Shown piece after piece: positions 36,017 to 46,252 of a stretch of 64,000 bases of DNA (position 1 is the stretch's first letter; every line of letters begins with the position of its first letter). A program made the position numbers and the translations under genes. The stretch comes from a phage. The DNA lies in sequence record PZ386948.1; one strand, given 5' to 3'. The notes below the pieces were generated by a model. The model saw only the letters and a list, made by a program, of their open reading frames with translations, did no database searches and was not told the DNA's origin.

Positions 36017-36433
36017 TTAAATGTAAATATTTTTGCCGTAATACTTATACCAGTGTGGCTTCATTAAAATTTTTTCATCGAGTCGTTGTTGACTCAACTT
36101 AATAGCTGATTTGCATGGATTATAATCATTTTTCCATTCTACTGGAATATCGCTGATGTCAGGAACTTCAGTATCTTTTATACTGAACCCGCGTTTTAAG
36201 CATTCCGTTATAATGTCCGATTGACGCTTTCGCAAAAATTCTAACTTATCGTAAAAGAAAGTAACATGACCAGAACCTAAAATAAATTTAGAAGATATTT
36301 TAAAATCTTTAACGCGCTTACCGTTTGCCACATGCTTACGAACTATACCAAAAACACGCGGCAATTCACGGTATTCTGCGATTAAATGTTGATCAGCAAG
36401 TTCAGATACTAAAGTCAAATTAATACGAGTCAT
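36017..36433 (-). CDS. denV: endonuclease V (pyrimidine-dimer DNA glycosylase)
   Basis: 138 aa [28 protein letters not shown]... matches remembered T4 DenV. Confidence 0.9.
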
Positions 36434-36492
36434 TTTATCCCTCCAAGTAACTGTGAATATACTATCACAATTCTAGGAGAAAGTAAACAACT

Positions 36493-37023
<531 letters not shown>

Positions 37024-39266: not shown

Positions 39267-39286
39267 TCCTATTTACTCCAAGTATA

Positions 39287-39304
39287 AGGGGCCGAAGCCC
39301 CTTA
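39287..39304 (-). terminator. UUCG-tetraloop hairpin
   Basis: aaggggccgaagcccctt. Confidence 0.45.
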
Positions 39305-39307
39305 TCA

Positions 39308-40189: not shown

Positions 40190-40453
40190 TTATTTCATAT
40201 TATTGAAATATTCTTCTGCGATTTCGTCGTTATCATGGTAAACTTTAGAAGACAGTTTAACATAACCTTCAGCAGTGAACATGTTAATCACAACCTTTAC
40301 AGTATACCACTGACCATCTTCATTACCCATTACTGCGTAAGTTTCAAACATCGGATGGTCAGGACCGATAACTTTAATATCATTCACTGTACGACCGAAA
40401 TCTTCTGAAACACATTTCATAAAGAAGTTGAACAGCTCACCGTAATTATCCAT
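40190..40453 (-). CDS. hypothetical protein
   Basis: Start set at MDNYGELF with GGAG RBS; 5' ORF extension is promoter repeat. Confidence 0.4.
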   Translation of the reverse strand: MDNYGELFNFFMKCVSEDFGRTVNDIKVIGPDHPMFETYAVMGNEDGQWYTVKVVINMFTAEGYVKLSSKVYHDNDEIAEEYFNNMK

Positions 40454-40496: not shown

Positions 40497-40526
40497 ATAG
40501 TACCATGGAAGGACAAGGATGTAAAC
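40497..40526 (-). promoter_or_regulatory. early-type promoter (GTTTACA-17-TGGTACTAT)
   Basis: Same motif family, upstream of ORF start 40453. Confidence 0.5.
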
Positions 40527-40659
40527 CGTTTTGTGAAAAAATTTTTAAAAAGTTTTGGGGAATTCTAGGGCAGGAAGGGGAAATCAAAGGATAGGATAAT
40601 ATATTATAAAGGGTAGAAACTAAATGATGTCTAGAGAGGCCTGGAAAGGCCTAGATACC

Positions 40660-40687
40660 AAAAAGCCCCAACCTTTCGGTCGGGGCT
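40660..40687 (-). terminator. intrinsic terminator, copy 1 of repeated hairpin
   Basis: aaaaagccccaacctttcggtcggggct; GC stem plus U-tract on minus strand; identical copy at 41205-41232. Confidence 0.6.
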
Positions 40688-40694
40688 AAGAATG

Positions 40695-41168
40695 TTATTT
40701 GATTTGTTTAGCAGACCAAATGCGATCTTTAATAATTTTTTGGATGTCTTCAACATACACAAGAGAGTGAGCATGTGGATTATCTTTGAAACTATAAGCA
40801 CGAGCTAGTTTTTGGCCTTCAGTTTTGATTACTAAAAGCTCTTTAAGGATAGCTTCATATTTGGAGATAATTCCTTTAACAATATTTTTTTCTTGTGCAG
40901 CTTTAGGATCTGCTTTAGGAGCAGGTTTACCCGAAGCCTTTGCAAAAGCAGCGCCAGTAGCAACTAAACTTTTCCAGGCCATACTAACTGCATTTCCCGT
41001 AAATCCTTCCGCTTTCATGTCGCGTGCGAACTGGAATCGCGATTCATCAGAAGCATCTTTATAAGAATATTTACCCGCTGCAATGGCTGCTTTTGCGACA
41101 GCTTGAATTTCGGTGCTAGATGCTTCATTTAACACCGCTTCATTTAAAAATTGAGTATATGATTTCAT
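40695..41168 (-). CDS. internal-protein-like ORF with capsid-targeting-like N-terminus
   Basis: 157 aa; N-terminus MKSYTQFLNEA resembles T-even internal-protein targeting sequence MKTYQEFIAEA; Ala/Lys-rich. Confidence 0.45.
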   Translation of the reverse strand: MKSYTQFLNEAVLNEASSTEIQAVAKAAIAAGKYSYKDASDESRFQFARDMKAEGFTGNAVSMAWKSLVATGAAFAKASGKPAPKADPKAAQEKNIVKGIISKYEAILKELLVIKTEGQKLARAYSFKDNPHAHSLVYVEDIQKIIKDRIWSAKQIK

Positions 41169-41204
41169 CTTATTTCCTGTTTTAATTCGTGGTTTTAATA
41201 TACT

Positions 41205-41232
41205 TATTTATACTAAAAAGCCCCAACCTTTC
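41205..41232 (-). terminator. intrinsic terminator, copy 2 of repeated hairpin
   Basis: Identical 28-nt sequence to 40660-40687. Confidence 0.6.
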
Positions 41233-41251
41233 GGTCGGGGCTAAGCCTTGC

Positions 41252-41550
41252 GGCAACCTTGTCGGGGTTCCACCTGCTAAGGCAAGTGTTTGTACGAAAC
41301 GCCGGGATTCGAACCCGGTTATTAAGCAGTTGACGCTACTCAATATTTTTAAAAGGCCATATCTCGACCATATCCGAACGTTCCGTCAAAAACGCTACTC
41401 GGCTTACGGCAAAGATATTTCCTCGAATCGATAATTCGGTGCGCCGTTTCTGCTGTGATGTAAGAGGGCATCAATAAACGCAAAGATTATTAACGCAATT
41501 CCTTACTCAGGGAACATCAGTCCGACGACTTACCGGTAGCGACCCGGTTT
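41252..41550 (-). ncRNA. candidate structured small RNA
   Basis: ~300 nt without ORF; minus-strand perfect T-arm-like hairpin CCGGGUUCGAAUCCCGG; intrinsic terminator at 41205-41232. Confidence 0.35.
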
Positions 41551-41551
41551 C

Positions 41552-41902
41552 TTAATATTCTTTTAAAGCATCAATCTGTTTACGGCGTTCACGCCATAAA
41601 TCAATTGCTTCATACGCGGATTCAACATTTCGAATTGGACGGCATTTATATAAAGATTTGTGATTTTGATATTGCGTAGATAACGGAATTTTATCTAAAA
41701 GGTCTTTACGTTCAAAGTATTCGTAACCATCTAAGCCAAATGAACGATTTTTGAGAAATTGCCAATGACCAAATTCGTTTTGAATATAAATATAATCCGC
41801 ATGTTGATAAAGTAAATTAATTTCACGAAATGAGATATGTTTTTCATATTCATTGAAGTAAAATGTTAAATCATGAACTACTAAATAAACATTACCTTTC
41901 AT
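41552..41902 (-). CDS. hypothetical protein
   Basis: 116 aa ORF adjacent to tRNA-Arg. Confidence 0.45.
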   Translation of the reverse strand: MKGNVYLVVHDLTFYFNEYEKHISFREINLLYQHADYIYIQNEFGHWQFLKNRSFGLDGYEYFERKDLLDKIPLSTQYQNHKSLYKCRPIRNVESAYEAIDLWRERRKQIDALKEY

Positions 41903-41996: not shown

Positions 41997-42000
41997 TAAT

Positions 42001-42087
42001 TGGGGTGACCGATGGGAGTCGAACCACCCGAGTCGCAATGACAATGGATTTACAGTCCACACCGCTACCTCTACGGGATAACTCCCC
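42001..42087 (-). other. tRNA-like element, non-canonical (possible degenerate tRNA or small stable RNA)
   Basis: Has GGUUCGA T-loop-like motif, anticodon-like arm with GUA in loop and 3' CCA, but acceptor and T stems do not pair canonically by eye. Confidence 0.3.
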
Positions 42088-42100
42088 TTAATTCTTAATT

Positions 42101-42353: not shown

Positions 42354-43004
42354 TTATATATTGTTAATTTGATTTAGAATTCTTTTTGCTTGAGTATGAC
42401 TTACGCCAATATGCTTAGCATATTTAGACAATTCGCCACGTTTAGAAAAATCATATAATTTAGAAATTTCTATTCTTCTTTTTCTTTCATCCGCAGAAAC
42501 TTTTGCTTCGTTTGCTTTTGCTATTTTACGTTTAGCTTCTTGAGAATGAGTTTTACCAGCAAAGCCATTCTTCATTAATCCATTTGAAGACCATCCTTTT
42601 AATTTTCCGTTAGAATGTGCCTTTTTAACACCCAATGAAATTAATTCGCGTTGCTGATCTGTCATAGGATAATTATTTATATGATCCCATCCACCTTCAC
42701 CTCCAAGTTTTAAATTATACACATCTGGTCTATTTAAAAACTCTTCTGTGACAATATTTTTCTCGGCTTCAAGCATAGATTCTTTATCGTCAAAATACTC
42801 TAATATTTCTTTAGAAAAATTTTCTATACCATATTTATCTTGGGCTCTTTTTAATAATTTACCAGAACCCATATATCCATCATCTAAATTTTCGGTAGAA
42901 TGCACACCAATATAAATTTTATTATTAATTTTATTTGTTATTTTATAAAGATAAAAATGCATATCAGTCCCTAATAAAGAACTGAGCGTCTCACGACGAG
43001 TCAT
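42354..43004 (-). CDS. GIY-YIG homing endonuclease (SegB-like)
   Basis: 216 aa; GIY-YIG core YLYKITNKINNKIYIGV; C-terminal HTH-like tail; embedded between tRNA-Ser and tRNA-Gly. Confidence 0.75.
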   Translation of the reverse strand: MTRRETLSSLLGTDMHFYLYKITNKINNKIYIGVHSTENLDDGYMGSGKLLKRAQDKYGIENFSKEILEYFDDKESMLEAEKNIVTEEFLNRPDVYNLKLGGEGGWDHINNYPMTDQQRELISLGVKKAHSNGKLKGWSSNGLMKNGFAGKTHSQEAKRKIAKANEAKVSADERKRRIEISKLYDFSKRGELSKYAKHIGVSHTQAKRILNQINNI

Positions 43005-43180: not shown

Positions 43181-43813
43181 TTATTTATTACGTGAAAAAG
43201 ACTGTTCTATCAATTCTGGACACTTTCGTTCTATCCATTTTCTAGCTTTTTGTGGGCTTATACCTATTATTTTAGCAGCTTTACTAACCCATCCAAATTT
43301 AGAATAATCGATTTTAACTAATTCTTCGTAAATTTCATCAGTTAAAATCTTTTCATTAATATTTACCAGTAAATGATATAATTTATTATCATTAGCAATT
43401 TTAATGAATCTTTTATAGTTTCCGCCTTTACTTAAACCTAATGAAGTAATTGCAGATGATATAGTAGCCGAATTTAATAGTGCGTTTAAAATTTCTTCAT
43501 CACTAACATTATAACGCTTTTTATTATTTTTAATATTTTTACCAGCAAAAGTATCAGTTTGCGAATGGCAGTTTGGACATAATAATCTTAAATTTGATTT
43601 AAGATGATTTTTGTTATTTCCATCAATATGGTCTAATTGCAGAACAATATGCTTATTTTGCCATTTTGAAATTTTACAAATTGCACACTCATATGGAAAA
43701 ATATTTTCTTTTATTATTTTGTCTTTCAGCTTTCCTGTACTAAAATTTGGATGTTTTCCTTCAAAAATTTCAGCTAATTTAGTATCCATAATATGATTCC
43801 CAATTATTAACAA
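43181..43813 (-). CDS. HNH homing endonuclease with zinc-finger and C-terminal HTH-like tail
   Basis: 210 aa; CAIC...HIDGNNKNH...NLRLLCPNCH; abuts tRNA-Leu. Confidence 0.7.
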   Translation of the reverse strand: MLIIGNHIMDTKLAEIFEGKHPNFSTGKLKDKIIKENIFPYECAICKISKWQNKHIVLQLDHIDGNNKNHLKSNLRLLCPNCHSQTDTFAGKNIKNNKKRYNVSDEEILNALLNSATISSAITSLGLSKGGNYKRFIKIANDNKLYHLLVNINEKILTDEIYEELVKIDYSKFGWVSKAAKIIGISPQKARKWIERKCPELIEQSFSRNK

Positions 43814-45325: not shown

Positions 45326-45550
45326 TTATTCAACGCCAGCGGCTTTCAAAAGTTTCTTAAGATTGGCAACACCTTGAGCAGAAAATGTGACCTTGCCACC
45401 TTTTTCACTGATAGAACCAACCAATTTAGCAAGTTTATCATTAGGAATTTTTTTAAAATCAGCCAATGTTCCATCAAAGGTTTTTGAAACAAAAGGCAGT
45501 TCGTCTTCGCGTCTTTTAGCTTCTACAATAAATTCTTGATATGTTTTCAT
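45326..45550 (-). CDS. internal-protein-like (capsid-targeting N-terminus)
   Basis: Start MKTYQEFIVEA... equals T-even IP targeting sequence consensus; preceded by promoter repeat. Confidence 0.65.
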   Translation of the reverse strand: MKTYQEFIVEAKRREDELPFVSKTFDGTLADFKKIPNDKLAKLVGSISEKGGKVTFSAQGVANLKKLLKAAGVE

Positions 45551-45586
45551 TTTAGTTTCCATTTGAGTGTTTGTTTTGATAGGGTA

Positions 45587-45616
45587 ATAGTATCACTACT
45601 AAAACCCAATGTAAAC
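45587..45616 (-). promoter_or_regulatory. early-type promoter repeat (GTTTACA-17-TACTAT) for IP-like gene 45326-45550
   Basis: Minus-strand GTTTAC/TTTACA then 17 nt then TGxTACTAT; same ~55-bp unit repeated at 45293, 45953, 46283. Confidence 0.55.
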
Positions 45617-45634
45617 AACTTTGTGAAAAATTTA

Positions 45635-45922
45635 TTACAAAAGATTTTTAGCAATAATCTTGAGATGTGCCGCAGAAATGTGTTTAGCTTTAAACAACGC
45701 AGTTTCTTCAGCAGGAGAGATAACGATTGTAGCACCATCCTTTTTAGCAGACCACCCATCGCCTAGGTAAACAGTACCTTTGATTTCTTCGCCATCAACC
45801 AGACTAATCATTGGTTTACCTTCTCGTCCTTTATTTGCTTTAATAACTTCAGAAGTAAGAGTAGCTTCGGTAATAGTAGAAACCGGGGTAGTTGTAGAAG
45901 TAAATTCTTTGAAAGTTTTCAT
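45635..45922 (-). CDS. internal-protein-like (capsid-targeting N-terminus)
   Basis: 95 aa; MKTFKEFTSTTTPVSTITEA...; preceded by promoter repeat. Confidence 0.6.
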   Translation of the reverse strand: MKTFKEFTSTTTPVSTITEATLTSEVIKANKGREGKPMISLVDGEEIKGTVYLGDGWSAKKDGATIVISPAEETALFKAKHISAAHLKIIAKNLL

Positions 45923-45952
45923 TTTATTTTCCTAATTAATTTTGATAGGGTA

Positions 45953-45982
45953 ATAGTATCACAACTAAAACCCTATGTAAAC
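45953..45982 (-). promoter_or_regulatory. early-type promoter repeat for IP-like gene 45635-45922
   Basis: Same repeat unit. Confidence 0.55.
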
Positions 45983-45994
45983 AACTTTGTGAAA

Positions 45995-46252
45995 TTATTT
46001 TAAATCTTCTAATCGTTTCTTCATCTTAGAACCGTTCTTAGCGATTTCGCCTGCATCAGAGCATAATGCTAAAAGCGCTTTAACTTTAGTTTGGTCTCCT
46101 TTAAAAGATGAAGGATCAACAGCAGCAGCAAGTTCTTTAATACGAGAGAAAAGACGCTCAGCTTCAGCTAAAGCCATTCCAAGCTTTACTTCCATACCGC
46201 GGGAAGATTCAGTAATAGTAGTTTTTGTAGCAAACTCTTTGAAAGTTTTCAT
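45995..46252 (-). CDS. internal-protein-like (capsid-targeting N-terminus)
   Basis: 85 aa; MKTFKEFATKTTITES...; preceded by promoter repeat. Confidence 0.6.
   Translation of the reverse strand: MKTFKEFATKTTITESSRGMEVKLGMALAEAERLFSRIKELAAAVDPSSFKGDQTKVKALLALCSDAGEIAKNGSKMKKRLEDLK

Follow-up and report, generated by a model that had tools for sequence, protein, structure and literature searches.

The stretch of phage DNA analyzed here (sequence record PZ386948.1; 64,000 nucleotides, called the window below) carries on its minus strand an open reading frame (ORF) of 157 amino acids that lies between rnaC, which encodes species 1 RNA, and the conserved gene e.8, and that is bracketed by two copies of one terminator-like hairpin. 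The queried 1.2 kb of the window match Shigella phage CM8, a Tequatrovirus, at ~99.9% identity, and all genes of the region around the ORF are on the minus strand. The arrangement of these elements indicates that the ORF is probably a real, late-expressed gene for a T4-type internal head protein that has gone unannotated, situated between two copies of the rnaC terminator that would recombine with one another. The features on which this reading is built are the following (vertical arrows in amino acid sequences mark predicted cuts).

40695..41168, minus strand: the ORF, candidate internal head protein gene; 157 amino acids; PHROG 2280 (function unknown); between rnaC and e.8
41124..41168, minus strand: capsid-targeting-sequence-like propeptide, codons 1-15, MKSYTQFLNE↓AVLNE↓A; two L-N-E↓A sites consistent with L/I-X-E, the gp21 motif; compared with MKTYQEFIAE↓A of T4 IPII/IPIII
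41175..41178, minus strand: Shine-Dalgarno sequence AGGA, 6 nucleotides ahead of the start codon; 'caggaaataag ATG' is kept in relatives
41205..41212, minus strand: T4 late-promoter consensus TATAAATA, 36 nucleotides before the ATG; its first three bases lie within the repeat
41210..41245, minus strand: upstream repeat copy (copy U); hairpin at 41242-41219, AGCCCCGACC-GAAA-GGTTGGGGCT, then UUUUU; putative terminator of the tRNA-rnaD-rnaC transcript
40655..40690, minus strand: downstream repeat copy (copy D); hairpin at 40687-40664, then UUUUU; starts 4 nucleotides past the stop codon; putative end of the late mRNA

An initial annotation had singled out this ORF by its N-terminus, MKSYTQFLNEA, and had described its body as rich in alanine and lysine. 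Both statements hold: the ORF is present on the minus strand with the start MKSYTQFLNEAVLNEA, and 27 alanines and 21 lysines among its 157 residues make the description a fair one. Homologues are found in 512 phage records, in 468 of them at full length, and their identity to the ORF product falls roughly by genus, from ~97% in Tequatrovirus to ~73% in Mosigvirus and ~55% in Jiaodavirus. Purifying selection on the ORF is strong, with a ratio of nonsynonymous to synonymous divergence (dN/dS) of 0.07-0.17 at a synonymous divergence (dS) of 0.8-1.7 between alleles.

Two copies of one hairpin and a predicted late promoter

The two hairpins had initially been placed at 40660-40687 and 41205-41232; the first position is correct, and the second copy lies 10 nucleotides higher, at 41215-41242. 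The window contains exactly two occurrences of the shared 28-mer, AAAAAGCCCCAACCTTTCGGTCGGGGCT, also when 3 mismatches are allowed, whereas 0 are expected (100 shuffles). It is part of a longer repeat of 36 nucleotides, the two copies of which (40655-40690 and 41210-41245) are identical at 35/36 positions and start 555 nucleotides apart. Each copy forms, as the initial annotation had it, a GC hairpin with a U-tract on the minus strand, consisting of a 10-bp stem with 7 G-C pairs, a GAAA loop and UUUUU. Judged by sequence, both copies have the G+C-rich hairpin and ensuing U-tract by which an intrinsic terminator is recognized. Hairpins U and D are the two top-ranked terminator-like sites in a 10-kb scan, the local RNA folds of the repeat copies have energies of -27.4 and -22.5 kcal/mol, with no shuffle folding as well, and the hairpin carries the label 'terminator' in two deposited genomes. 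Variants of the stem in relatives preserve pairing, through G-U wobble or through Watson-Crick (A-U) changes, which supports selection on the RNA hairpin.

In phage records at large the 36-mer is found at 1287 places in 815 records, with one or two copies in nearly every genome; in the sampled loci, each copy that was inspected lies between rnaC and the next conserved gene. A common terminator found at many unrelated sites, which the initial annotation, together with absence of the protein from virions, had regarded as the outcome that would undo its proposal, is therefore not what these counts describe; in the sampled loci the repeat belongs to one locus. The 472 extra copies of the 36-mer roughly equal the 468 records that contain a full-length ORF homologue.

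A late promoter that overlaps the edge of the repeat had been overlooked. The octamer TATAAATA has 10 minus-strand occurrences in the 64 kb, and the exact octamer recurs at the corresponding position in 12 of 16 further filled loci (those with a cassette) that share this hairpin context, which come from three genera, Tequatrovirus, Mosigvirus and Jiaodavirus; the 12 loci are those of RB68, RB27, GRNsp7, KP1, A2 and LF82-33 together with six IMG/VR loci. The remaining 4/16 have a 7/8 variant (three Mosigvirus-type loci) or the more degenerate ATAAATA (one locus). At the level of the motif, the ORF would thus have the late expression expected for a T4-type internal head protein. The octamer is missing at the empty sites of T4 and ACG-C40, because the crossover proposed below would remove the promoter. 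The search for early promoters gave no promoter-like call for the minus strand at 41169-41245; the nearest early promoter (40525-40497) lies ~140 nucleotides outside copy D.

From the layout of these motifs we infer terminator activity for both hairpins and promoter activity for the octamer. Prereplicative minus-strand transcription of the tRNA-rnaD-rnaC unit would end at hairpin U; in T4, transcription presumably ends at this rho-independent terminator after the tRNA/species 1 RNA unit. The late promoter directly behind hairpin U would then give rise to a monocistronic mRNA of ~0.55 kb that ends at hairpin D, which may insulate e.8 from the ORF transcript. Since the transcript would end at hairpin D, e.8 would retain an early promoter of its own. 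The stem of the T4 terminator is identical to both CM8 copies; the difference is that CM8 and ~470 other genomes have the terminator in duplicate, with the second copy serving another gene.

A putative capsid-targeting sequence and its product

The capsid targeting sequence of T4 internal proteins has been dissected by mutation, which assigned residues 4 and 7 to targeting and residues 8 and 10 to processing, with L/I-X-E as the motif of the prohead protease gp21 (PMC9026906). The ORF agrees with the targeting sequence of T4 IPII and IPIII at all four experimentally mapped positions (Y4, F7, L8 and E10), and the resemblance to internal proteins claimed for its N-terminus is thereby confirmed under these rules. 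It contains, by sequence, a gp21 site at L8-N9-E10↓A11 and a second one five residues on, at L13-N14-E15↓A16. A scan of all ORFs of the window with at least 40 amino acids for the targeting pattern gave four matches, namely this ORF and the three internal protein genes of the ipI locus. Homologues begin with MKTYNEFLMTE↓A, MKFKEFLAE↓A or MLEYSEFLKELFCE↓A; the length of the propeptide varies among them, and the targeting pattern and the mature start ASS(S/T)(D/E) are kept.

With such an N-terminus, MKSYTQFLNE would be expected to take the pre-protein into the prohead scaffolding core, where gp21 would cut off the propeptide after Glu10 and/or Glu15, leaving a mature protein that would begin at AVLNEASSTEIQAVAK or at ASSTEIQAVAK. 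The product in the head would be a basic, all-helical protein of ~15.5 kDa that is presumably ejected with the DNA. The predicted mature form has 142-147 amino acids and an isoelectric point (pI) of 9.6, and is small and basic like the T4 internal proteins, whose pI values are 9.0-9.65.

The product would accordingly fit the class of T4 internal proteins by every criterion that can be read from sequence. It shares with them the propeptide MK(T/S)Y.(E/Q)F(I/L).E↓A, including residues 4 and 7 (targeting) and 8 and 10 (processing), and it is likewise the small basic product of a non-core, variably present gene with its own short expression unit and with a body unrelated to the other members. It differs from them in four respects: the ORF occupies a third site, from rnaC to e.8, distinct from both the denV-e locus and the ipI locus (57B to trna.4); a second cleavage motif follows the first in tandem (EAVLNEA); the product is modeled as two helical domains joined by an Ala/Lys/Pro-rich linker; and almost no genome annotates it as an internal protein.

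The AlphaFold model (mean predicted local distance difference test, pLDDT, 76.5) is all-helical, with two domains and a linker. The N-terminal three-helix domain (~residues 18-71) is the part that is conserved across genera, the linker is modeled at low confidence, and the Klebsiella and Yersinia homologues have a different domain in place of the C-terminal helical hairpin.

A close homologue has been detected in virion preparations. The product of g140 of phage fD1 (phiD1), 98.7% identical to the ORF product, passed the strict threshold for particle association in liquid chromatography with tandem mass spectrometry (LC-MS/MS) of purified virions, in a dataset of low specificity and without N-terminal mapping, and so did g129 and g146, which lie at recognized internal protein positions (PMC8309999 Table S3). 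This detection is supportive and weak, since the dataset also lists clearly non-structural proteins.

The ORF might also encode an ordinary intracellular, non-virion protein, in which case the likeness to a targeting sequence would be an inherited or chance relic and the detection by mass spectrometry a contamination; we consider this improbable. The fD1 dataset is permissive, calling 113-137 of 277 gene products, or about half of the proteome, particle-associated, with the non-structural denV, NudE and dNMP kinase among them, and ~500 deposited phage genomes name the ORF hypothetical. One UniRef entry calls a Klebsiella homologue 'Internal head protein', and all other names examined are 'hypothetical' or 'uncharacterized'. 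Named internal proteins share no detectable homology with the product after its first 10-15 residues: BLASTP against T4 IPI, IPII and IPIII, RB68 Ip4 and the CM8 ipI-locus proteins gave no match past the propeptide. Foldseek against PDB and viral structures returned self-family or insignificant helical matches only and no functional lead, a Pfam search found no family for the ORF or for five neighbors, and in some homologues the cut is preceded (M-T-E) or followed (E↓Q) by a less canonical residue. Save for the UniRef entry, which speaks for an internal protein, these observations count against assigning the product to the virion. Against an intracellular protein stand the four mapped targeting positions, kept across genera despite a varying propeptide length and a diverged body; the restriction of the targeting pattern, elsewhere in the window, to known internal protein genes; the conserved late promoter, as expected of a head component; and the basic pI of the mature form, like that of the T4 internal proteins, which themselves are dissimilar to one another beyond the propeptide. 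Taken together, we infer targeting, cleavage and injection as the probable fate of the product.

The two recognized internal protein loci can be examined in the same window. The ipI locus (45326-46252, minus strand) consists of three consecutive ORFs with targeting sequences, of 85 amino acids, 95 amino acids (identical in sequence to T4 IPI) and 74 amino acids, each with an early promoter of nearly the same sequence ahead of it, TTTACA-N17-TACTAT with TG (45981, 45615 and 45321); a promoter of the same type precedes e.8 at 40525. At 36017-36987, denV (36017-36433) directly adjoins the lysozyme gene e (36493-36987), with no internal protein gene between or beside them. The denV-e site is occupied elsewhere by ipII and ipIII (T4), by ipIV and ipIII (PST) or by Ip4 (RB68 and RB27), and by none in T6. 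A substitution of the ORF for missing ipII/ipIII was considered and rejected, as there is no clean anti-correlation: T6 is without both, and RB68, RB27 and fD1 have Ip4 together with the ORF. Relocation of ipII or ipIII as the origin of the ORF was rejected because BLASTP showed no similarity past the propeptide.

Filled and empty states of the rnaC to e.8 interval

A comparison of the bracketed segment across T-even genomes, as the initial annotation had proposed, reveals a polymorphism with sharp boundaries. T4 has one repeat copy and lacks the ORF; a joint alignment of the three genomes CM8, T4 and RB68 shows collinear flanks, with T4 short of exactly 555 bp, one repeat unit plus the ORF, so that the repeat bounds the difference exactly. 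The single T4 copy lies ~50 nucleotides after rnaC, at the same position as copy U. The sites of T6, PST and ACG-C40 are empty as well (one copy, no ORF). About 60% of related genomes contain the 555-bp unit, and the others, T4 among them, lack it. Of the two possibilities first raised, a duplicated terminator or a cassette that moved as a unit, the terminator is indeed duplicated and the 555-bp unit is real, and the idea of movement is better replaced by gain and loss at one fixed locus.

The direct repeats would thus be two copies of the rnaC terminator, and recombination between them, or with the single copy of a co-infecting relative, would remove or add the 555-bp unit. The unit would comprise the late promoter, the ORF and one terminator, and its exchange would leave the neighboring genes undamaged.

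Homologues follow directly after the tRNA/rnaC cluster in Tequatrovirus (RB27, RB68 and GRNsp7), Mosigvirus (APCEc01 and JK45) and Jiaodavirus (Klebsiella phage KP1); one divergent homologue, in the sampled locus L025, was found elsewhere, with a different upstream context. Presence at one position in three genera and an identity that falls by genus indicate that residence at this site is old. For the empty state of the T4 type, loss through recombination of the direct repeats with each other is a more parsimonious explanation than persistence of a state from before an insertion, and re-acquisition from a co-infecting phage through repeat homology is equally possible. The converse, that the empty T4-type site is ancestral and that recombination placed a cassette, together with a terminator copy of its own, in the rnaC terminator, after which it spread horizontally among T-even phages, seems unlikely to us. 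It accords with the near identity of the CM8 copies (35/36), which fits a recent duplication or insertion, with ORF alleles far more diverged at silent sites (dS 0.8-1.7) than their nearly identical flanks, which indicates exchange of the cassette between lineages, and with the gain via flanking regulatory motifs proposed for promoter-early stem-loop (PeSL) cassettes (PMC2839356). The distribution over three genera and the protein phylogeny that roughly follows them argue the other way, as do lineage-specific variants common to both hairpins (TTCC in Mosigvirus, GACC or AGCC in Tequatrovirus), which fit long residence with concerted evolution better.

These arm variants are CTTCC in Mosigvirus and GACC or AGCC in Tequatrovirus, with RB68 mixed; from this small sample, concerted evolution or repeated exchange of the two copies would follow. 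A comparison of CM8 with RB27 bears on exchange more directly. Identity is 100% through rnaC to hairpin U and 55-68% directly behind it, in the adjoining ORF. The diverged ORF alleles, the CM8-RB27 breakpoints and the shared arm variants point to ongoing exchange. Two considerations run counter to the hairpins as the points of crossover. Identity between CM8 and RB27 recovers inside the 3' half of the ORF and not at hairpin D, and this downstream breakpoint within the ORF means that the hairpins are not the sole exchange points. Furthermore, 36 nucleotides is short for efficient homologous recombination in T4.

The rnaC to e.8 interval has been filled in more than one way. Shigella phage A2 and three IMG/VR contigs have a second cassette downstream, for a 187-amino-acid protein that begins with the targeting-like MKTYAEFLTE↓AAKL and has an ATAAATA motif ahead of it, and GRNsp7 and two contigs have a 184-amino-acid membrane-like ORF in place of this second cassette. 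The inspected cassettes are each followed by a terminator-like hairpin, in some cases related to the 36-mer and in others different. The additional families with targeting-like sequences are the following.

L012 594-1157 (Shigella phage A2) and L017 1800-2363: 187-amino-acid family (A2 gp137 type), MKTYAEFLTE↓A; unannotated, between rnaC and e.8
L015 1834-2460 (Mosigvirus LF82-33): 208-amino-acid family, MYTFNEFLAE↓T; unannotated, with a long Pro/Lys/Ala-rich linker, behind the same hairpin and TATAAATA

The interval would thus be a small variable locus with zero, one or two terminator-bounded cassettes. That the 36-nucleotide repeats are instead the target-site duplication or attachment-site footprint of a site-specific mobile element (a transposon, an integrase cassette or an insertion driven by a homing endonuclease) is highly improbable. 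Direct repeats around an insert do resemble a target-site duplication, and homing endonuclease genes lie ~1.2 kb off in the tRNA cluster. The 555-bp unit, however, encodes just the 157-amino-acid ORF and no transposase, integrase or endonuclease, and the repeat has the form of a canonical intrinsic terminator, with a stem in which changes preserve the pairing, and is already present as the rnaC terminator in genomes that lack the insert. Moreover, other cassettes are bounded by related, non-identical hairpins, unlike a fixed target-site duplication.

Recombination between duplicated terminators, the reading preferred here, has its nearest precedent in the PeSL cassettes that occupy hyperplastic regions of T4-type genomes. 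An ORF of RB49 is flanked by two regulatory motifs that correspond to a single motif in phage phi1, and recombination circles have been detected (PMC2839356). The locus shares with such cassettes (Arbiol et al. 2010, PMC2839356; Comeau et al. 2014, PMC4122927) a non-essential ORF between two motifs with a terminator stem-loop, a relative that has the motif once and lacks the ORF, and a proposed mechanism in which the motifs recombine homologously. It differs in that the 36-nucleotide repeat consists of the terminator only and lacks a sigma-70 early promoter, the linked promoter being late and mostly outside the repeat, and in that PeSLs form a dispersed family, whereas here there are 2 copies in the 64-kb window, at one locus. 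The stem-loop, recognized from sequence, and the pair of copies around an ORF opposite a single copy in a relative are thus present, and the early promoter and dispersed copies are absent. Because the repeat has no early promoter and is not dispersed, the cassette is not a PeSL in the strict sense and is better described as a locus-specific terminator, duplicated, that serves as homology for recombination.

The morons of lambdoid phages offer a second comparison, as they too are autonomous units of promoter, ORF and terminator between conserved neighbors, which some relatives have and others lack. The arrival of morons has been attributed to illegitimate recombination that involves no conserved repeats at the flanks (PMC2839356). 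The boundaries here are homologous repeats, late lytic expression is predicted, and the product is probably a virion component.

Neighboring genes and the meaning of the locus

The gene order rnaD-rnaC-ORF-e.8 was taken from the annotations of CM8, RB68 and T4. In the direction of transcription the region contains the ipI locus, trna.4-trna.2, the tRNA genes with homing-endonuclease genes between them, rnaD, rnaC, the ORF, e.8, ORFs of the e.7 type, nudE, e and denV. The features that immediately flank the cassette are:

41293..41431 (approximate, transferred from the T4 annotation), minus strand: rnaC (species 1 RNA) homologue, last gene of the tRNA/small-RNA transcription unit; from alignment to the annotated rnaC of T4 and RB68
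40190..40453, minus strand: e.8 homologue, conserved gene downstream of the cassette site; from the CM8, RB68 and T4 annotations
40497..40525, minus strand: sigma-70-type early promoter of e.8, TTTACA-N17-TACTAT with extended TG; outside the repeat, ~140 nucleotides downstream of hairpin D

The early-promoter region of e.8 resembles other early-promoter regions elsewhere in the window. Matches of the queried region at 4-6 further places per genome were traced to this promoter region and are copies of neither the ORF nor the hairpin. Both rnaC and rnaD (~41293-41555, minus strand) are represented by homologues of these stable small RNAs. An Rfam search at gathering thresholds found only tRNAs and gave no match for the hairpins, rnaC or rnaD, and the PHROGs database gave 'unknown function' families only for the ORF and the neighbors searched. 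A precomputed PF26894 label on P0013 was discarded, as rescanning gave no Pfam match. A literature search for RB32ORF132c found nothing; a paper comparing PST with T4 does not contain this locus because the PST site is empty, the paper on fPS-2 offers no proteome, and a mention of rnaC together with rnaD concerns an unrelated single-nucleotide polymorphism.

Upstream of rnaD, an ORF of 116 amino acids (41552-41902, minus strand; phrog_3355, function unknown) lies between tRNA-Arg and rnaD and overlaps the predicted 5' end of the latter with its stop codon. RB68, GRNsp7, APCEc01 and ACG-C40 have kept this ORF, and it is absent from T4, where tRNA-Arg abuts rnaD. The 104-nucleotide gap between tRNA-Arg and tRNA-Met (41997-42100), where RB68 and RB27 have tRNA-Asn and tRNA-Tyr, may be the remnant of deleted tRNA genes. 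Two genes of the homing-endonuclease type are located within the tRNA cluster on the minus strand, a 216-amino-acid GIY-YIG-like ORF (42354-43004) and an HNH endonuclease gene (~43181-43789, by the CM8 annotation), both 1.2-2 kb from the cassette; it is a matter of speculation that co-conversion during homing could aid the spread of the state of a neighboring locus. On the other side, a perfect 9-bp GC-rich hairpin at 39284-39305, ATAAGGGGCC-GAAG-CCCCTTAT, stands between ORFs resembling e.6 and e.5, with no clear U-tract on the scanned strand.

Internal proteins are cargo that T4-like phages inject along with their DNA, and IPI, the sole one that is understood, disarms a restriction system of the host. 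By analogy with IPI, an anti-defense role or a DNA-associated role in the host can be guessed for the product of the ORF. A broader proposal, to which we give slightly less than an even chance, is that the interval from rnaC to e.8 is an unrecognized third internal-protein locus of T-even phages, with a changing set of late proteins that bear targeting sequences (PHROG 2280, the 187-amino-acid A2 gp137 type and the 208-amino-acid LF82-33 type), which would be injected as host-specific counter-defense effectors and swapped by co-infecting phages via the duplicated rnaC terminator.

A family labeled 'hypothetical' in ~500 sequenced phages, many of them candidates for therapy, appears to have every hallmark of injected cargo that sequence can provide, which makes it a candidate new injected effector that can be tested cheaply. 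For annotation, this favors screening the ORFs of T4-like phages for an N-terminal targeting motif together with a late promoter. The locus also provides a clear example from nature of a doubly used terminator that would act as a hinge for gene gain and loss, and it would extend the PeSL idea to a simpler repeat that consists of the terminator only.

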